Positions 4,756 to 54,067 of a stretch of 64,000 nucleotides of DNA are shown here, piece after piece (the stretch's first letter is position 1; each line of letters starts with the position of its first letter). Location of the stretch: NCBI GenBank assembly GCA_965198225.1, contig CBDAOY010000006.1, positions 832,001 through 896,000 on the forward strand. Reading direction: 5' to 3'. The position numbers and the translations under genes are program-made. The DNA comes from Terriglobia bacterium. Its GTDB lineage: Bacteria > Acidobacteriota > Terriglobia > 20CM-2-55-15. The notes beneath the pieces were generated by a model. The model was not told the DNA's origin. It searched no databases and saw only the letters and a list, made by a program, of their open reading frames with translations.

Positions 4756-4770
4756 TCAGTAGTCGGTAGT

Positions 4771-6089
4771 CAGTAGTGTCCGACACGTTTCAGAATAGAT
4801 TCAATTGGTTAGCGTTAGAGTGTCGATTTGAGATGAGCCCGGATTCGGTAAGCAGCTGAAAAAGAGGCACATTCTCAAATGGTGTGACACTCAAGATCTG
4901 TAACATTGAGTGCAACGACAAAGGCAAATTCAGTTCTTTACGCACGATAGCCACCAGCACGTAAACGCTCACGGCGACCCAGACCTGAGTTTTGACGGCG
5001 TTCTCGGAAGTGCCGAAGAAACGCTTGATGCGCAGGTGCTGTTTGATCCATTTGAAGAACAGCTCCACCTGCCAGCGCAGGCGATACAACTCGCAGATGG
5101 TCCGGGCTGGGAGCGTCATGTGATTGGTCAAGAAAACCAGTCGCCGACCCTCGGGATCGCGATAACGAATGCGACGCAACCGTTCGGGGTAGCCGCGGCG
5201 GGAGCGAAATACGGTCAGTTCGATAGTCTGATCGCAGATGAGGCCCGTGTGTCGGTCGACGGGTTGGGAGTAGATGCGCTTGAACGCGAAGTCGGATCGA
5301 GCACGGGTGACGAAGAAGCTCCCGGCTTGATTGAAGGTGTAGAGGCGATCGAAGTCGAGATAGCCGCGGTCCATCACGTAGAAAGCACCGGCTTCGGCGA
5401 TGAGCAGGTCGAGAACGTTGACGTCGTGCAGCCTGCCTTCGGAGATGTGGATGAAGCTGGGGATACCGCCACGCAGGTCGAGCAGCGTATGAAGCTTCAC
5501 CGCGGCTTCGGTCTTTCGAAAGTGCGCCCAAGGGAACAGCGACAAGCACAGACTGATCATCGTGGAGTCGAGCGCGTAGACGGTTTCGTCCAGGTCGATC
5601 CCGAGCGGCTCGTGGGCATACAAGCGGCGTGCGATGCGGATCAGCGCCTGAGCGAACTCTCCGTAGATGCGCCAGTCGCGAGACTCGTTGGCATCGGCCA
5701 ATGCACTGCGGCTGACCTTCCCGTGCAACCCCAGGTGGTAGAGCTTGGCGGGTTGGGCTCGCAAGCAGGCTTGAATGTCGCGCAGGCTCTCCCGATAGGT
5801 CAGCTGAGCGAAGGCCATGCATAGGAACTGGTCCAGGCAACTGAATGTGCGGACGTTGAAATTGCCGCGGTACTTGGTCACCAGACGACGGAACGTATAC
5901 CACGGCGCGAACTCCATGACTTGTGCGAAGACCAGCTTGCCAGCGTGCATCGGTGCCTCCCAGAAACCTCTGGAAAGGCTGCCGCGAAGGCCGCACAGAA
6001 ATCAAATCGTTAACACCTTGACAAGCGCGCTACATCGCGTCAGTTCTAACTTTAGGACCGGGAGGTCCTAAATCTGTCGGACACTACTG
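4771..6089 (-). mobile_element. Complete IS4-family insertion sequence (1319 bp)
   Basis: Perfect 15-bp TIRs CAGTAGTGTCCGACA (4771-4785) and TGTCGGACACTACTG (6075-6089). 9-bp target duplication GTCGGTAGT at 4762-4770 and 6090-6098. Confidence 0.93.
4790..5950 (-). CDS. IS4-family DDE transposase (DUF4372-like N-terminus)
   Basis: ALDST, MDRGY and YRLRWQVELFFKWIKQ (IS4 YREK signature) motifs. The ORF lies within the TIRs. Confidence 0.93.
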   Translation of the reverse strand: MHAGKLVFAQVMEFAPWYTFRRLVTKYRGNFNVRTFSCLDQFLCMAFAQLTYRESLRDIQACLRAQPAKLYHLGLHGKVSRSALADANESRDWRIYGEFAQALIRIARRLYAHEPLGIDLDETVYALDSTMISLCLSLFPWAHFRKTEAAVKLHTLLDLRGGIPSFIHISEGRLHDVNVLDLLIAEAGAFYVMDRGYLDFDRLYTFNQAGSFFVTRARSDFAFKRIYSQPVDRHTGLICDQTIELTVFRSRRGYPERLRRIRYRDPEGRRLVFLTNHMTLPARTICELYRLRWQVELFFKWIKQHLRIKRFFGTSENAVKTQVWVAVSVYVLVAIVRKELNLPLSLHSMLQILSVTPFENVPLFQLLTESGLISNRHSNANQLNLF

Positions 6090-6135
6090 GTCGGTAGTCA
6101 GTAGTCAGTTGGCGGCTGCGCCGCGGCGCTCGAAG

Positions 6136-6376
6136 CTAGCTGGAGCTTTCACTTCCGGGCTTCCAGCCATTAGGTCACCCCAATAACTGCCGGATATAAC
6201 TACGGCGCCATACTGGAAATTGCGCCGGCGGGACTTGAACCCGCTAGCACAGCAGCTAGCCTCGCTGCGCCACTTCCTCGCTGTCTACGCTTCTCTCCCG
6301 CCGGTCACCCGGCGACAGGCAAGACTCGCTACCGGCCTGCCCTCTACGGCTTTAACCGGACTGGACTTTCACCGGT
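6136..6376 (-). mobile_element. Relics of two group II intron 5' (domain I) regions
   Basis: The minus strand reads ...GTGAAAGTCC...GAGTCTTGC...GAAGCGTAGACAG (motifs shared with the intron at 7762), then GCGCAGCGAGGCTAGC...GCGGGTTCAAGTCCCGC. No D5/D6 is seen. Confidence 0.6.
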
Positions 6377-7047
6377 TATTTCCCCTTGTCATCTGTAGCG
6401 CTGTCGAATAGTGTGAAACACGTCGATTCGTTGTCGAATGCAATTGTTTTCAAGCCTTTAAGCCTTGGGGAAACTCTCAAGTCGGCGGCGGCGATCGGTA
6501 TGGCGTCATGCCGCTGGGAAACAATCCAGAAAGCCTCCACGAGACCTCCGACTCTACCTTTGTGCCGAAATGGATCAGAGGGGCCTGCTGTCAGTGAAGA
6601 TCACTAAAACACCCATGAGTGAGCGCCATCCGAGAGGGACAGCGTACAGACGGACAAGAGGGCTCATTTCAACCGCGCAGACTGTTACAATCCGCTTCAC
6701 GCCTGAAGACACAGTGATTCCGTCGATCGAGATCCAGCGGGTACTTCCTGCAATGGGGTCGATTCGCGACACGGCGGCCTCTCTATTCGGCTTTACGGCT
6801 GATTTCAATGTGCGCCGTGAGAAGGCGCCAATCCTCAGCGGGTGCGAATCCCGCCCGGCAACTGTCGCTCCAGTCGGTAGCAATCGGAGCGGATGGTGGA
6901 GGTAACAACATCGTCTGAAGCACTCCGATGACAAAGGGCCGCCTCGGGCGGCTCAGCGACCACACAGGCCACAACGCGAGTAAACGCCGAGCAGGCCTCG
7001 AAACGCACAATGCGGAAGCCGACCCGCCGTTGAAACGGGGAAGGCGT

Positions 7048-7710
7048 CACGAGCGGAAGGGGACCCCGCAAGGGTCTCCGATCTCGCCGCTGTTCAGCAA
7101 CATCTACATGCGGCGCTTCATTCTGGGCTGGAAGGTGCTGGGCTACGCCCGGCACTTCAAGGCGGAAATCGTCAACTACGCGGATGACTTCGCGGTTCTC
7201 GGTCGCGCGCCGGCAGCGGTGATGCTAGCGGCGGTCGAAGCCCTGATAAAACGTCTGAAGTTGGCGATGAACGTTGAGAAGACCCGCTGCTGCCGGGTGC
7301 CGGAGGAATCGATGACGTTCCTCGGCTACCGGATCGGTTGCAACTACCGGCCGGGTACGGGTGCCGCCTACATAGGCACACATCCGAGCCGGGAAAGCGT
7401 CCAGAGCATCTGCCGTCGTGTGAGCGAGTTGACCGCGCCGCGCCACGTGCTCCTGCCGTCGGGAGTCGTAGTGGGACGCCTCAACCGGTTGCTGATCGGT
7501 TGGGCGAACTATTTCATCCTGGGACAGGTCCGCCCGGCCTACAAGGCGATTGATCAACACGCGACCCGGCGGCTGCGCCAGTGGCTCTGCCGTAAGCACA
7601 AGGTGCGGACCGGGAAACACGTGCGCTTCCCGTCCGAGCGGCTCTGGTCCGATTACGGGCTCACGCATCTTGCGCCGCGTACGGCGAGCTTTCCGTGGGC
7701 GAAGGCATGA
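7048..7710 (+). pseudogene. 3' fragment of group II intron reverse transcriptase/maturase
   Basis: GTPQGSPISPL, NYADDF, FLGY and GWANYF motifs. The N-terminal RT subdomains are missing, and domain I RNA is fused directly to the PQG region. Confidence 0.88.
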
Positions 7711-8162
7711 TCTCGTCCGAGAGCCGGATGCGGGAAATCCGCATGTCCGGTTCGATGAGCGTTGCGCCTTGCAAGCGCATGAGATCCAGTCGCCTGAGAT
7801 GGCGGCCGTGGCAGAGCCTAGCCGGCAGCCACGTACCGAGTCTTGCGTGGTGGTCGGTGACGGACACTGCGAAGCGTAGACAGGGAGGGAGTAGGCCGGA
7901 ACACCAGTGAACGGAAAGATAGCCCCGAAATCGAACGTGGTTGAAGTAGCCGACCCTGTCGCTCTAGGGGGAAGGCGGAATCGCAGGGCACGCAATGGCA
8001 AGTGCCCTGGGGTGCTTCCGGGGTTCGTACCGCCGGCATGCAACCAAGGATTTCATGGGAACAAGGGAGATCCGTCAGGTTCAAGCGGAGCTTGTAGGGT
8101 TGGACAAGCCAACAACGCGAGGAAGACCCGAAGGCCTGTCGGAAGTCAGACTGGCTGATAGT

Positions 8163-9975
8163 GCGTGCCTGGCAGCACGCGTTTCCGGCGGGTTAAAGTC
8201 CCGCTCGGCCCGAGGCCACGGGTCGATATCCAACAAGTGGGGGTAATGCCTCACTGGCCGAAGTGTAGACAGGTAGTGCAGATGCCTAAACGGGCACGAA
8301 GGCGAAAGCCGGATACGGCCAAGGCAAAGCTGGAGCCAGCTACGGAAACTTTGGAGGGCAGGGCGCCCACCGCGAGGTGGGGTCTGAAGGGCATGAGGAG
8401 AACCACCGGGTCGTAATCGACGGGAGCCATCCCGAGGATGAACCGGTCGGCCAAAGATGGGGAATGGTCGAGCCCGCACTATTGGGGCGAAGGCGCATTG
8501 GTTCCACCCCATCGCACCAAGGTGTGTGCGGGCGACACGGTGGAGAAGAGACGCGAGTGACCCAGGGAGGCCTGGTATCGTCCGAGCGGAAGGTAAGGTC
8601 GAGATGATGTGGCACCCGCAGACGAAAGGGCGGGCAACCGAGAAGACAAACATCGACCTAGAGCCCTGCGCGGTAGGTGCGGATATAAGCGAGAGCGAAA
8701 TTCCGGCCGACGCGGTGTCAGGAATCGGATCGGGGAATAGTGCGTGCCTGGCAGCACGCGTTTCCGGCGGGTTAAAGTCCCGCTCGGCCCGAGGCCACGG
8801 GTCGATATCCAACAAGTGGGGGTAATGCCTCACTGGCCGAAGTGTAGACAGGTAGTGCAGATGCCTAAACGGGCACGAAGGCGAAAGCCGGATACGGCCA
8901 AGGCAAAGCTGGAGCCAGCTACGGAAACTTTGGAGGGCAGGGCGCCCACCGCGAGGTGGGGTCTGAAGGGCATGAGGAGAACCACCGGGTCGTAATCGAC
9001 GGGAGCCATCCCGAGGATGAACCGGTCGGCCAAAGATGGGGAATGGTCGAGCCCGCACTATTGGGGCGAAGGCGCATTGGTTCCACCCCATCGCACCAAG
9101 GTGTGTGCGGGCGACACGGTGGAGAAGAGACGCGAGTGACCCAGGGAGGCCTGGTATCGTCCGAGCGGAAGGTAAGGTCGAGATGATGTGGCACCCGCAG
9201 ACGAAAGGGCGGGCAACCGAGAAGACAAACATCGACCTAGAGCCCTGCGCGGTAGGTGCGGATATAAGCGAGAGCGAAATTCCGGCCGACGCGGTGTCAG
9301 GAATCGGATCGGGGAATAGTACTCAGGAACGAGACGGCAAACATAAGGTCTCGGATCGTTGCTTCGAGCAGCGGCGCTGGCGGGTCCAAAAGGCCCGTTG
9401 GAGGGGGAAGTCCCCGTACTCAGTCGTGAATGTGCGAGCGATGGGAAACGCGGAGATATCGTGGAATTGGATAGTTCCCTTAGCGAAAGACCCAAACGCG
9501 GTACGAACGAAGCCGCCACCTGCCGCCACACAGCGAATTCCGAACGAGGAGCAACTGAGGAAAGCGGCTTGCGGGAAAACCGCACGAGCCGTTTGATTGA
9601 GCGGACGGTGGAGCGGACGGTGGGATCGGCCCGACCACTTTCGACTCTACACTCAGGAACGAGACGGCAAACATAAGGTCTCGGATCGTTGCTTCGAGCA
9701 GCGGCGCTGGCGGGTCCAAAAGGCCCGTTGGAGGGGGAAGTCCCCGTACTCAGTCGTGAATGTGCGAGCGATGGGAAACGCGGAGATATCGTGAACTTGG
9801 ATAGTTCCCTTAGCGAAAGACCCAAACGCGGTACGAACGAAGCCGCCACCTGCCGCCACACAGCGAATTCCGAACGAGGAGCAACTGAGGAAAGCGGCTT
9901 GCGGGAAAACCGCACGAGCCGTTTGATTGAGCGGACGGTGGAAGGGCCGATCGGCCCGACCACTTTCGACTCTAC
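8163..9975 (+). mobile_element. ORF-less group II intron 3, outer copy (8163-8741 plus 9651-9975, 904 nt)
   Basis: Starts GCGTG. EBS1 ACTATT at 8478-8483. D5 AAAGCGGCTTGCGGGAAAACCGCACGAGCCGTTT at about 9891-9924. Ends GACTCTAC. Domain IV is short with no RT ORF. Confidence 0.85.
8742..9650 (+). mobile_element. ORF-less group II intron 3, inner copy (909 nt), inserted into the outer copy
   Basis: Contiguous near-identical copy with an intact AATAGT-ACTC junction at 9315-9324, EBS1 at 9057-9062 and D5 at about 9561-9594. It produces the A-A-B-B repeat pattern (579 bp and about 325 bp). Confidence 0.82.
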
Positions 9976-10101
9976 ACTCCGAGGTCGGGAGAGCCGATCA
10001 CATGGGGAAGCGGCCAGCAGAAGTGGACTCGTTCTTGGGAAACATGAGCTCCATGCAACGGGAGGATACGGTCCTCTATGCAACGAGAGGAACAACCAGT
10101 C

Positions 10102-11424
10102 ATGGAAACGAAACTGGAACGAATAGCGGCGAAAGCTCGGAGTGAGCCAAAGCTCCGGTTCACGTCACTGGCGCATCATGTCACCCGAGAGCGTGTGTGG
10201 AAGAACCTGTGTCAAGTGCCCCGCAACACGGCTCCCGGATGTGATGGTCAGAGGGTACCGGAGGCGAAGGAGGAATTCGGAGTCTGGGTGGAGCCAATGC
10301 TCCAGTCTGTTCACCAGAAGGGATATCGCGCTCCGCCGATTCGGCGGGTGTATATCCCCAAGCCCGGCAAGCAGGAGAAACGTCCCCTGGGCGTGCCCTG
10401 TGTTCAAGATCGGGCCCTTCAGCGCAGCGTGGCCGAGGTATTGGTCGCCATCTACGAGCAGGACTTCTTGCCCTGTTCCTTTGGTGGCCGGCCTGGGCTG
10501 GGCGCCCACAATGCACTGGCAACCCTCCATGAGGTGATTTCCGGATGCAAGGTGAGTTGGGTGTTGGAGGCGGACTTGAAGAACTTTTTCGGGAGTTTAG
10601 ACCATGGATGGCTACTCCGCTTTGTGGAGCATCGAGTCGGAGATCCGCGGATCATCAGTCTGATACGACGATGGTTAAAGGCGGGCGTTTTCGAAGACGG
10701 GGAATTGCATTCGAACGAAGAGGGAACCCCGCAAGGTGGGTCGATCAGCGTTCTGCTGAGCAATCTGTACCTGCATTATGTGCTTGACCTGTGGTTTGAC
10801 CGGATGGTCCGGCCACGCCTGAAGGGTGAAGCGTATCTGGTGCGGTACATCGACGACTTTGTCGTGTGTTTCCAATATCGGGACGATGCGCTTCGTTTCC
10901 AGAACGTTCTGCGCAAGCGACTGGGAAAGTTTGGACTGGTTCCGGAGCCGACCAAGACGAAGCTCGTCGAATTCGGCCGCTATGCCCAGCGCGATGTCGT
11001 CCGGCGCGGGAGAAAACGTCCAGAGACGATCTATTTTCTGGGCATGACCCTGTACTGTACGCGTAATCGCAAAGGCAATTTTAGAGTGGGACTGCGAACA
11101 GAGAAGTCTCGACTTCGACGCAGTCTGGCTCATCTACGCGGCGTGATGAGGCGAATGCGTCACTTGCCGGTCCGGGAGCAAGTGCACAATCTGAACCGAG
11201 TCTTGCGCGGGCACTACGCCTACTATGGCATTGCCGGGAACCTCCGGGCTCTGCAGCACGTCGCTCGGGCCGTGGAACGTTACTGGCGCCAAATGCTCAG
11301 CAGTCGTAGTCGTGCAGGCTTCGTCCGGTGGGAAGTATTCAACCGGATTCAGCTGCACTTTCCGTTACAGCGTCCCAAGTTGGCTCTCCGCTATCGGGAG
11401 TTCCAGTCTCTCGCTGTGCTGTAA
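10102..11424 (+). CDS. ltrA: Group II intron reverse transcriptase/maturase, apparently without endonuclease domain
   Basis: IPKPGK..RPLG, SFGGRPG, EADLKNFF, GTPQGG and RYIDDF motifs plus the X-domain RGHYAYY. The stop lies just before D5. Confidence 0.95.
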   Translation: METKLERIAAKARSEPKLRFTSLAHHVTRERVWKNLCQVPRNTAPGCDGQRVPEAKEEFGVWVEPMLQSVHQKGYRAPPIRRVYIPKPGKQEKRPLGVPCVQDRALQRSVAEVLVAIYEQDFLPCSFGGRPGLGAHNALATLHEVISGCKVSWVLEADLKNFFGSLDHGWLLRFVEHRVGDPRIISLIRRWLKAGVFEDGELHSNEEGTPQGGSISVLLSNLYLHYVLDLWFDRMVRPRLKGEAYLVRYIDDFVVCFQYRDDALRFQNVLRKRLGKFGLVPEPTKTKLVEFGRYAQRDVVRRGRKRPETIYFLGMTLYCTRNRKGNFRVGLRTEKSRLRRSLAHLRGVMRRMRHLPVREQVHNLNRVLRGHYAYYGIAGNLRALQHVARAVERYWRQMLSSRSRAGFVRWEVFNRIQLHFPLQRPKLALRYREFQSLAVL

Positions 11425-11620
11425 ATCCAATTCTGAAGAGCGCAGTGCGGGAAATCCGCACGCTGCGTTCTGTGGGAGCCGGAGGCGGGCAACTGCCTCC
11501 GGCCACCCGGTGCGACTGGAAACGAAGCCACGGCGAGGAGTGAGGCACCGGAATCGGCGAAAGCCACCGGCAACAGCTACCCCCTTTGCCTACCGCCACC
11601 GCGCCAGTCGTCGACTCTAC

Positions 11621-11703
11621 ACGAAGTAACGAAGGCAACGAAGATCGGAAAAGATATTGCTATCTTCGTCTCGCTTCGTGCCCTTCGTTACTTCGTGTTA
11701 AAA
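11621..11703. repeat. Hairpin made of short ACGAAG-containing units
   Basis: ACGAAGTAACGAAGGCAACGAAG ... CTTCGTGCCCTTCGTTACTTCGTGTTAAAA inverted arms. Confidence 0.7.
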
Positions 11704-52181: not shown

Positions 52182-54067
52182 TCAGTAGTTGAATATAAAG
52201 TCCAGCTTGTTCAGCAGCGCCCACTGGCAGTCGGCCAGCCACAGTTCGTAGTCCGTCCCCTTCGTGCTGAGCAGGACCTCGAATTCTTCATCCGTTGCCC
52301 ATCGCCCGAGAGTCGCGAGGAACAACCGGTCGATTGCTTCGCGATCACCGAGGCCCGCTTGAGCGACCCGCGTCACATGCGTCAGCACTCCGCGGTCTCC
52401 AAATGCACGCGAGTTGATCATGTCGTCGTTCATCATCAACAAGGTCTGCAGGACATTCGAATCGAGTGTCGGCGGCGTCTGCCACCAATCTCCCCGGCCG
52501 AGCTTGTTCAGGAAATCCATGACTCTGTAGTTGCTCCGAGGTTCGGTCGGGTCCGGCAACTGCATCGCGTAGTAAAGCGGCTGGTCGAAGCCGTTTACGT
52601 ACATCGGGGCGACGGTCATCGTGGCGGTGGTCAAGGCGTCGTAGATCTCCTCCGGTTTCAGCCGGCGCGGCGTGTGCTTGGCGAAGTAGAGCTGGTATTC
52701 CGCTTGCCAGTTGCCCGGATAGCTTCCAGAGAGCTGGTAGGCCCGCGATTGCGCGATCAGGCGGATGACGCTCCGGATGCTGTAGTCGCTCCGGATGAAC
52801 TCGTCGGCGAGCGCTTCGATCAGTTCCGGGTGAGTCGGTTGCAGCGTCCAGGGTGCAGGTGGTGGATTGTCGGGATCGATTCGCGCCAGATCCCAGCCAT
52901 CGACCGGGTCGACGATTCCACTCCGGAAGAAATGTGCCCAGATGTAGTTGACGGTCGCCCGTGCAAACTGTCGATCCGATGTGACGATCCGACCCAGGGC
53001 CCATCGCCAGTTTTCCGACTGCGGCTCTTCACCGGTGAACATGTATTCCGGCGTGTGTGCGGCACCGGTGCGAAACGGTCGCGGCCCCGGATTCCCCGGA
53101 TCGACCACGCCCGTGTAGGCGCCGGTCGAACGATTGTTGACAATGAAGTGGGATTGCTCCTCGAAGGCATCGGCCGGTAACTGGATCAGGTTCGTCCGTG
53201 CCAGGAAGGCCGACAACCCCCAGAACTCTTCCCTCCGTCGTTCCGACAGGTAAAGGTTGATCTCTTCCAGGTGGTTCGCGCCGTCGTGACAAGAAACGCA
53301 TTCGGTGCGGACGCCGAGAAACTTCGAGGTGATCCGATCAGCCAGGACATCCCAGGTGTCCTGGACGGGATCGCCTTCCTGGACCGCGCGGACAAGGAAA
53401 TTGAGCGATGCCTGCTCATGGGAATCTCCGTTCGACGCGATCATTTCCATCACCAGGTCGGCATAGGAGCGATCCCGGGATACGAAATCCCGCAGGTAGT
53501 GGTGGAAGAGATTCCTTCCTGGGATTCCGATGAAGTAGTAGTAATTGCTGGTGACCTCAAAATGGTTCGCGAAGAAGGCGGTCCAGTAATCGACGAACGC
53601 CTCGGAAGCGTGAGCGGACGGTGGAAGGCCGATCGGCCCGACCACTTTCGACTCTACAATTGCTGGTGACCTAATTCGTCGATCAGCTTGTTTCGTTTCG
53701 CCGGGTCGGGGTCGGCGACGAAACTCTGAATTCGTTCGATCGACGGAATCCGCCCCGCCAGGTCCAGCGACAGCCGCCGCAGGATTTCCACGTCCGTTGC
53801 GGCTGGTGCCGGCTCGATGCCGTCATCCGCCATCTTGCTGAAGATGTGAGTGTCGATCACGTTGCCCGACGCGGTATCGACGTTCCTGGGCGCCGACCAG
53901 GTGACCCGCGGCTGTACCAGCTTCATCGACATCGCCTGTGTGGATTGCTCCAGCTGGAGACGGGCTTCGAGGACGCGGCGCTGTGGTTTCGGATAGGCCG
54001 GACAATAGGGGTCGTCGCCGCCCGCAAGGGTGGTCAGAAGCGCAACGATGATGGGTAAGCGCAACAT
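52182..54067 (-). pseudogene. DUF1549/DUF1553 protein split at about 53610-53672 by a group II intron D6 fragment
   Basis: The N-part has RRLSLDLAGRIP...RNKLIDEL and the C-part has ASEAFVDYW, FLGVRTECVSCHD, VNYIWAHFFRSGIV and WALLN. The two are in different frames with a stop inside the insert. Confidence 0.85.
53611..53657 (+). repeat. 47-nt copy of the 3' end (D6) of ORF-less intron 3
   Basis: TGAGCGGACGGTGGAAGGCCGATCGGCCCGACCACTTTCGACTCTAC matches 9928-9975 except for one G. Confidence 0.9.

Follow-up and report, generated by a model that had tools for sequence, protein, structure and literature searches.

A group II intron without an open reading frame, found in domain III both of its own copies and of other group II introns

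The stretch of DNA analysed here (the window, 64,000 nucleotides (nt) of contig CBDAOY010000006.1 from a Terriglobia bacterium) contains at positions 8163-9975 a group II intron without an open reading frame (ORF), labelled X, which interrupts domain III of another group II intron and is itself interrupted in its own domain III by a second copy of X. The reading that we favour, and hold to be very likely, is that X is a non-autonomous, IIC-like member of a lineage that homes into domain III, that X additionally targets itself, that its reverse transcriptase (RT) is supplied in trans, that splicing proceeds from the inside out, and that recombination reshapes the resulting nests. Copies of X were sought by blastn in the genome to which the window belongs (G000, 6.4 Mb in 9 contigs), and relatives were compared in other assemblies and in metagenomes.

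Reading of the sequence together with a repeat finder revealed an A-A-B-B layout for 8163-9975. The two A repeats (8163-8741 and 8742-9320) are 579 nt each and 100% identical to one another, and the B repeats comprise 330 nt (9321-9650) and 325 nt (9651-9975), a pattern indicating that one AB unit was placed in a second AB unit at the A|B border. The inner unit spans 8742-9650 (909 nt) and the outer unit consists of 8163-8741 and 9651-9975 (904 nt); both start with GCGTGCC and end with GACTCTAC. The outer unit interrupts a host intron, intron 2, at GATAGT|A, with the junctions GATAGT|GCGTG...CTAC|ACTCCG, and the inner unit interrupts the outer one at AATAGT|A, with the junctions AATAGT|GCGTG...CTAC|ACTCAG. 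The inner unit's own site is uninterrupted and reads GGGGAATAGT|ACTCAGG at 9311-9320|9321. The units differ at 9464/9794 (G in the inner, A in the outer), at 9466/9796 (A and C, respectively) and in domain VI (9613-9623 in the inner unit, 9943-9948 in the outer), where the inner unit has 5 extra nt. Once joined, the outer unit is 100% identical to a copy at G000:C5:812868-813771. All coordinates that an earlier, preliminary description had given for 8163-9975 held, as did its statement that the two copies differ. The features of X in the window, including its exon-binding site 1 (EBS1), are listed below.

8163-8741, plus strand: 5' part of the outer X (unit positions 1-579), starting with GCGTG; domains I and II and the 5' side of domain III
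8478-8483, plus strand: EBS1 ACTATT of the outer X (unit positions 316-321), in the loop of a small hairpin GCCC...GGGC
8742-9650, plus strand: complete inner X (909 nt), which splits the outer X at AATAGT|A
9057-9062, plus strand: EBS1 ACTATT of the inner X (unit positions 316-321)
9315-9321, plus strand: empty target AATAGT|A of the inner X, within its domain III; the next insertion point lies between 9320 and 9321
9358-9555, plus strand: ORF-less domain IV of the inner X, with a closing helix 9358-9365 / 9548-9555 (complementarity read from the sequence); the RT ORF of the parent intron is missing near 9536-9539
9562-9650, plus strand: domains V (9562-9594) and VI of the inner X, the latter with a short tandem duplication that the outer X does not have
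9651-9975, plus strand: 3' part of the outer X, with the rest of domain III, an ORF-less domain IV, domain V (9892-9924) and domain VI, ending with CTCTAC
53611-53657, plus strand: isolated 47-nt piece of the X 3' end, found by blastn; the next letters are AATTGC

The description of X as a group II intron that lacks an ORF was supported. No RT ORF was found in the X unit, which contains only stop-to-stop frames of at most 196 codons in DNA of 60% GC, and the Rfam model of domains V and VI, RF00029, matched 9560-9650 over its full length (37.9 bits, E 2.3e-5; gathering score 40). Reading of the sequence also placed AGC at the domain V base and an A at a distance of 7 nt from the 3' end. The domain I model RF02001 gave a weak match at 8945-9052 (24.5 bits; threshold 32), and a relative 77% identical to X (L003) reached 32.4 bits with the same model.

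The ends of X were defined by comparing filled and empty sites. The census of G000 yielded 20 unit 5' ends and 21 unit 3' ends. TAGT precedes 18 of the 20 5' ends, the exceptions following TAAT and TGGC, and A follows every one of the 21 3' ends; the 5' flanks comprise 11 distinct 25-nt sequences, corresponding to 10 site types. One host family provides seven empty sites, GGTCATAGT|AGCCCGG, and one filled site with exactly GCGTG...CTAC between those flanks. In a second host family, three empty copies read CATACT|ACTCGG and the single filled copy has CATAGT|A, as pairing requires. X's own site was found empty 14 times and filled four times, in agreement with the earlier proposal that each insertion supplies a new copy of the target. 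These empty and filled sites demonstrate precise insertion at a site complementary to EBS1, with zero target duplication, and leave GCGTG...CTAC as the only register for the DNA unit, so that the upstream GT belongs to the target. A start at that GT (GTGCG) was ruled out at the DNA level by the empty sites ...CATAGT|AGCC... and AATAGT|ACTC..., and the joint in the RNA contig presented below is free of positional ambiguity. The non-canonical 5' end GCGTG, which had been deduced from the window, was therefore substantiated away from it by the host-family sites. As RNA, this end (GCGUG) departs from the GUGYG consensus, and the 3' end AC conforms to AY. Positions 1-5 of X align with GTGTG of its relatives, which reduces the oddity to a single U-to-C change at position 2; among 76 metagenome matches, the first five nt were GTGTG in 66, GTGCG in 5 and GCGTG in 5.

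The approximately 20 copies of X occupy at least 8 different host-intron types. The ORF-less copies are 97-100% identical to each other, and several are truncated or carry internal duplications. The 5' flank of one host is joined to the 3' flank of intron 2, and the true 3' flank of that host is present in G020, a different assembly filed under another genus of the same family. Together with A-A-B and A-B-B forms, these chimeric flanks indicate frequent recombination between X copies. Two X arrays, G000:C8:158737-160383 and G000:C5:3834-4942, are flanked by AGCAGTAGT|AGGCGAG and GCTGATGGC|, respectively; the flank of the latter has an uninterrupted counterpart at C8:20138. These two arrays may be ectopic insertions or rearrangements.

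The preliminary description had named domain III of group II introns, X included, as the target, and this was supported by an alignment to RF01998 and by the fold of intron 2. In the uninterrupted host L011, RF01998 aligned at 501-582 (41.6 bits), which places the insertion point 556|557 within the last hairpin of the model, in its conserved loop CAUAGU|A that faces GAAG. When the flanks in intron 2 were folded without the insert, a base helix of 7 base pairs (bp; 8151-8157 / 10011-10017) was obtained around the loop AUAGUA / AAG. Base 10018 then opens the domain IV helix (10018-10027 / 11426-11435), which encloses an RT ORF, and domain V follows at 11436. As the target hairpin lies directly 5' of domain IV, it is domain III by definition. 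The base helix is paired despite changed sequence in other hosts (CCGCUC/GGGCGG, GGUC/GACC, CUGCCUC/GGGGCAG and CCGGC/GCCGG). X's own AAUAGUA sits between the J2/3-like sequence GGAAUCGGAUC and the domain IV helix 9358-9365 / 9548-9555, and its local fold differs. The same loop occurs in domain III of the crystallised IIC intron.

According to Rfam domain I models, the hosts in G000 represent at least three ribozyme types, namely RF02005 (which includes intron 2), RF02001 (which includes a classic terminator-targeting intron) and RF01999. Several hosts are themselves ORF-less, with domain V located 200-360 nt past the insertion site. As is typical of intron-homing families, X is found at a conserved site in another group II intron; this site is in domain III, 5' of the domain IV helix, rather than in domain IV or the host RT ORF.

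The EBS1 of X, ACTATT at unit positions 316-321, is the exact complement of its own AATAGT, as previously noted, and is complementary to GATAGT with one G-U pair. Copies with ACTATT were located at self sites (AATAGT), at intron-2 sites (GATAGT) and at a few others, and ACTATG was present in both ORF-containing parents described below and in the three ORF-less copies located at CATAGT sites. Position -6 of the site was A or G for 12 of 14 ACTATT copies and C for 4 of 5 ACTATG copies (Fisher p 0.017 over copies, 0.08 over distinct sites). EBS1 and its partner, intron-binding site 1 (IBS1), vary together to a degree that is suggestive, not decisive. A copy in G020 with ACTATG at CGTAGT and a metagenome relative with ACTATC at GATAGT also fit the pairing rule. 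In all three assessable self-insertions the inner copy carries ACTATT, and self-nesting was seen only with this variant. Across G000, 469 ATAGT|A sites are empty, 21 of them in domain III contexts; all 15 filled ATAGT sites lie in such contexts, and none of the approximately 448 other ATAGTA sites is filled (Fisher p 5e-19).

Two further pairings were considered and rejected. An EBS2-like pairing of X positions 220-226 (GTCTGAA; GTCCGAA in relatives) with the J2/3 motif of the host was dropped for lack of covariation: in a hand tally, relatives with C had about 12 G-type and 8 A-type hosts, and those with U had 6 and 8. An IBS2 directly upstream of IBS1 was ruled out, as positions -7 to -12 are not conserved between targets.

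A closely related ORF-containing intron in the same genome, as known for ORF-less introns mobilised in trans, was also identified. Three X-family copies are longer by about 1250 nt, which lie between unit positions 795 and 798, and two of the three are intact full-length parents, at G000:C6:343788-345941 (2154 nt) and G000:C5:501714-503866 (2153 nt). The parents are 96-97% identical to X in the ribozyme, and their ORF fills exactly the gap of X. In both, domain IV encodes a 475-codon ORF with the RT and maturase domains RVT_1 (E 2.8e-33) and GIIM (E 1.5e-19), beyond which Pfam detected no further domain, and no endonuclease domain. The segment missing from X begins about 2 nt ahead of the TTG at 799, the probable start codon, and extends to the stop codon. 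Judged from these alignments, X is a clean ORF deletion of the 2154-nt parent that kept domain IV up to the ORF.

Among solved structures, the best relatives of the parent RT were 7uim_D (222.7 bits), which we take to be a IIC intron RT, and the GsI-IIC RT 6ar1_A (217.2 bits), followed by 6me0_C (155.7 bits) and LtrA (136.7 bits). The parent RT is accordingly of the class C type, without an endonuclease domain. The insertion sites are not those of class C, in which introns lie behind a terminator or hairpin with an IBS1 of 3-4 nt; the targets are domain III loops, with pairing of 5-6 bp and no upstream terminator. A true terminator-targeting intron provides the contrast within G000.

Relatives of the parent RT, with 50-94% identity, were found in metagenome-assembled genomes (MAGs) labelled Terriglobia, Desulfobacterales, NC10, Alphaproteobacteria, Nitrospinota and others. 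Their readable 5' junctions follow TAGT in 10 of 11 cases and TAGG in one, most have a J2/3-like motif 12-13 nt upstream, and host domain I models of four types were matched upstream in 6 of those loci. The EBS1 ACTATG is conserved in the lineage. A metagenome scan, for which the pattern consisted of X's first 40 nt only, returned 76 matches with at least 30 nt upstream, representing 67 distinct flanks. TAGT ends 47 of these 67 flanks, compared with 4 of 4000 background positions, and 50 of the 67 contain the J2/3-like motif, compared with 183 of 4000. A host domain I model was found upstream in 9 of 20 metagenome loci (the first 20 of the 38 with at least 600 nt upstream). The MAG junctions and metagenome flanks together indicate that a widespread lineage of ORF-containing introns habitually homes into domain III. 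Domain III targeting had been presented as a trait of X; it does hold for X, but belongs to the whole ORF-containing lineage, which spans several phyla and metagenomes. What is particular to X is the loss of the ORF combined with the EBS1 variant ACTATT, which perfectly matches its own AATAGT. AATAGTA is present in the intron's own domain III only in the subclade of the G000, Terriglobia MAG and Desulfobacterales relatives, and the others have CGAGGTA or CGCGGTA.

On balance, we lean towards a broader interpretation, in which a widespread IIC-related lineage of several phyla would be hyperparasitic on group II introns by way of the near-universal domain III loop C(A/G)UAGU|A, disabling the host ribozyme until it is spliced out and jumping between unrelated intron classes, and in which one ORF-less offshoot would have become self-parasitic by a single EBS1 base change and produced self-nesting arrays. 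The ability to jump between unrelated classes would follow from the target being a ribozyme motif and not a gene. No description of a lineage homing into domain III was found in open-access literature text, and PMC4748821 contained nothing on domain III. Automatic intron pipelines drop nested introns, according to the accessible portions of PMC4028801 and PMC8919778, and pipelines of this kind would have missed this lineage.

Evidence for splicing was sought in public sequencing data. The stretch is contained in 20 public runs from 9 studies, and the single-copy locus L037 was examined in two RNA runs (X15 and X16) and two deep runs of unrecorded type (X1 and X3). One 159-nt contig from RNA run X15 (depth 11.7) joins the host flanks at L037 349|1254, skipping exactly 904 nt with zero ambiguity. 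All six G000 sites of the L037 type are filled, which makes this contig compatible with a ligated-exon product. At L037, a joint across X was not seen in RNA run X16, from the same study as X15, or in the deep runs X1 and X3, and this is no proof of absence.

In the window, X forms part of a nest of four levels, in the order intron 1 > intron 2 > X > X. The host introns are arranged as follows.

7719-7761, plus strand: domain V of intron 1 plus the next 8 nt, up to the insertion point of intron 2
7762-8162, plus strand: 5' part of intron 2, starting with TTGCG; RF02005 match at 7797-8031 (137 bits), 5' strand of the domain III base helix at 8151-8157, loop ATAGT at 8158-8162
9976-11511, plus strand: 3' part of intron 2, with the rest of domain III (3' strand of the base helix at 10011-10017), the domain IV helix 10018-10027 / 11426-11435 around the RT ORF 10102-11424, and domains V and VI at 11436-11511
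11512-11620, plus strand: domain VI and 3' end of intron 1 (...GACTCTAC), contiguous with 7761 in two uninterrupted copies elsewhere

The two uninterrupted copies of intron 1, at G000:C6:5941-6130 and C5:743281-743470, have the empty site GATGAGCG|GCGACTGG. They define intron 2 as 7762-11511, inserted 8 nt past domain V of intron 1 and between its domains V and VI, and rule out an alternative delimitation of intron 2 with the 5' end GAGCG and the 3' end at 11620. Intron 2 was found at two further loci behind other sequences ending with GAGCG, and it may use domain V as an upstream hairpin. The intron 2 RT (10102-11424) is intact, with RVT_1 and GIIM. Intron 1 is damaged in the window (6802-7710), where its RT ORF is open for only 263 codons right after the RF02003 domain I match at 6836-6979; other copies of intron 1 have a 1392-nt RT match. 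An intron 2 relative of 92% identity, L036 (G000:C5:817039-818878), does not have the stretch matching window 7980-9975, and the right end of this gap is exactly the X 3' end, as if X and host domains II-III had been lost jointly.

The nest is shared with G020 at 99.5% identity over 3403 nt; in that assembly, contig C24 (L002 and L020), compared with window 7748-11150, contains the same intron 2::X::X arrangement. The presence of this nest in G020 without a detected parent suggests either a recent transfer or a problem of taxonomy or assembly. Self-junctions of X in X were found at six G000 loci.

Additional features were noted around the nest. Window 4758-6107, just upstream, is a repeat of about 1350 nt with about 9 near-identical copies genome-wide and probably represents an insertion sequence; on the minus strand, 6230-6369 gave a partial match to RF02005. 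Directly after the intron 1 3' end, window 11621-11700 contains a long inverted repeat, ACGAAGTAACGAAGG...CCTTCGTTACTTCGT. G000 as a whole is unusually rich in introns, with 32 matches to the domain V/VI model (24 over the cut-off) that represent several ribozyme types, many of them ORF-less or nested.

Several observations weigh against the interpretation that we favour. The Rfam scores of X for domains V/VI and for domain I are just below the curated thresholds (37.9 against 40 and 24.5 against 32), and position 2 is C, unlike GUGYG. The support from RNA consists of a single contig from one metatranscriptome, with a short side of 30 nt and no such joint in X16, and a joint of this kind could also arise from a strain with an empty site or from DNA carry-over in the library. 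An ORF-containing parent was not found in the G020 assembly, although X copies are present there. Tabulation of all X copies and flanks in G000 and related genomes, which the preliminary description had proposed as one check, confirmed TAGT at the 5' ends with the two exceptions given above, but Rfam searches of the flanks found no intron signal at 2 of the 10 site types (C8:158737 and C5:3834, the latter with GATGGC|); no host intron signal was found at two Terriglobia loci of the wider lineage either. One host family retains seven empty sites with a perfect CATAGT|A, which may mean that the activity of X is low or past, and the six X copies in intron 2 share identical flanks, so that they may have been carried along by their host instead of homing separately. 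These last points, the frequent recombination and the truncated or internally duplicated copies would also be expected if X were now a fossil whose copies and nests derive from moving host introns, duplication and recombination instead of current homing. We regard this as unlikely, as at least 8 different host flanks require separate insertions, the ORF-less copies are nearly identical, the sites agree with the EBS1 variants of the copies in them, both parents have an intact ORF, and other public runs contain X ends joined to flanks that are absent among the G000 junctions.

The restriction to domain III raises a related question, because pairing of six bases plus one cannot alone account for it: with some 448 other ATAGTA sites unfilled, EBS1 pairing is too short to explain the distribution. 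The extra specificity could reside either in hairpin recognition, as in IIC introns, or in selection. Were selection responsible, X would enter any NATAGT|A and only insertions in dispensable introns would survive, a scenario in keeping with the short pairing in evidence, the lack of covariation in the candidate EBS2-like pairing, the EBS2 partner that was not found and the few copies at sites without an intron signal. This scenario carries a minor, yet real, share of the probability in our judgement; the unfilled sites include intergenic ones, the J2/3-like habit extends across the metagenome flanks of many organisms, and IIC introns are described in the available text of PMC12584367 as reading DNA hairpins besides short pairings. 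An assembly artefact or simple tandem duplication in place of nested insertion, which repeats of 579 and 325 nt that are hard to assemble might suggest, can be considered disposed of for practical purposes because of the G020 nest and the self-junctions at six loci. The junctions also coincide exactly with intron ends and with the site complementary to EBS1, and the two X copies differ, so that the earlier claim of a real insertion event stands. A different matter is the source of the RT, which, as the preliminary description had raised as a possibility, could be the host intron RT at 10102-11424 and not the parent of X. That RT is intact and would be made from X's own transcript, six X copies sit in the intron 2 type, X and its intron 2 host occur in G020 where the parent ORF was not found, and in Thermosynechococcus some intron RTs serve several ORF-less relatives, as reported in the portion of PMC2882425 consulted. 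We nevertheless find it improbable that X depends on this RT: its intron belongs to a different ribozyme type (RF02005) from RF02001, which X weakly resembles, the parent RT shares only about 32% identity with loci of the intron 2 kind (tblastn), X retains domain IV of the parent as far as the beginning of the ORF, with 96-97% identity, and some X hosts have no RT at all. On these comparisons, the parents are more likely to be the source of RT and maturase for X.

Under the favoured reading of a domain III-homing, self-targeting intron, X would represent the ribozyme of a 2154-nt IIC-like intron from which the RT/maturase ORF was removed almost exactly from start to stop codon. Its lineage would move by retrohoming into other group II introns at a single place, the conserved internal loop C(A/G)UAGU|A of their domain III, probably recognised by an EBS1-IBS1 pairing of 5-6 bp (lineage EBS1 ACUAUG) and an A at +1. 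The common ORF-less variant, with EBS1 ACUAUU, is predicted to pair perfectly with X's own AAUAGU|A, and owing to this match X would enter copies of itself as well as host introns and build nested arrays. The RT and maturase would act in trans, most probably from the two intact full-length copies elsewhere in the genome. As each surrounding intron has its domain III interrupted by the inner one, splicing would have to run from the inside out, an order that we infer from the arrangement, the one RNA contig being compatible with splicing as such. Homologous recombination among the many X copies would then reshuffle and trim the nests.

Introns that home into introns and ORF-less introns that borrow an RT are already known. 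According to the consulted parts of Mohr, Ghanem and Lambowitz (2010, PMC2882425), ORF-less derivatives of the TeI3/TeI4 introns of Thermosynechococcus elongatus are mobilised and spliced in trans by the RTs of relatives. As in G000, ORF-less and ORF-containing relatives share that genome, EBS changes shift target specificity, and one family gives rise to twintrons by homing into other introns at a conserved position, in one instance within an ORF-less relative. The target there is in domain IV, between two start codons of the host RT ORF, and only close relatives serve as hosts, whereas X targets a ribozyme loop in domain III; the T. elongatus introns are close copies from a single ancestor, whereas the hosts of X are unrelated intron classes plus X's own loop. 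In Methanosarcina acetivorans (Dai and Zimmerly 2003, as summarised in the review PMC4424553), group II introns have been entered repeatedly by site-specific homing, giving nests of up to five introns. The parts of this review that were available also describe deletion of copies by recombination and the coexistence of ORF-less and ORF-containing forms, as found here; to go by the title of the original paper, homing in M. acetivorans is into related intron ORFs, in contrast to domain III for X.

With group IIC or class C introns, including the attC-specific lineage (PMC12584367 and PMC3001079, in the sections accessible), the X lineage shares an RT without an endonuclease domain and specialisation on a structured target, and the domain I of X weakly resembles the same Rfam model as the terminator-targeting intron of G000. 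Unlike the IIC introns of those sections, X does not lie behind terminator hairpins, its EBS1 pairs over 5-6 nt, and the structured element is a ribozyme domain whose distal hairpin is 3' of the site. A bacterial intron within an intron is also represented by the Trichodesmium twintron (Pfreundt and Hess 2015, PMC4649490), for which the available text reports sequential splicing in vivo. In that case, as presented there, one locus combines two ORF-containing introns that are unrelated, the inner lying within domain I of the outer, and X is a family with a fixed intron target. The new elements of the present system are a domain III ribozyme-loop target common to unrelated intron classes, the breadth of the lineage and the self-targeting ORF-less offshoot.

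In the known cases the target is host domain IV or the RT gene, so that only close relatives can serve as hosts. A target in the catalytic RNA itself gives a broad host range, with at least four Rfam domain I types across all loci examined, and each insertion would turn off the host ribozyme until the guest splices out. A single base change makes a self-targeting form possible. The system offers natural test material for IIC-like target recognition, for C at intron position 2 and for the ordered splicing of a four-level nest. Introns of this kind can also accumulate in DNA that is dispensable and leave genes untouched, a point relevant to the proliferation of introns.

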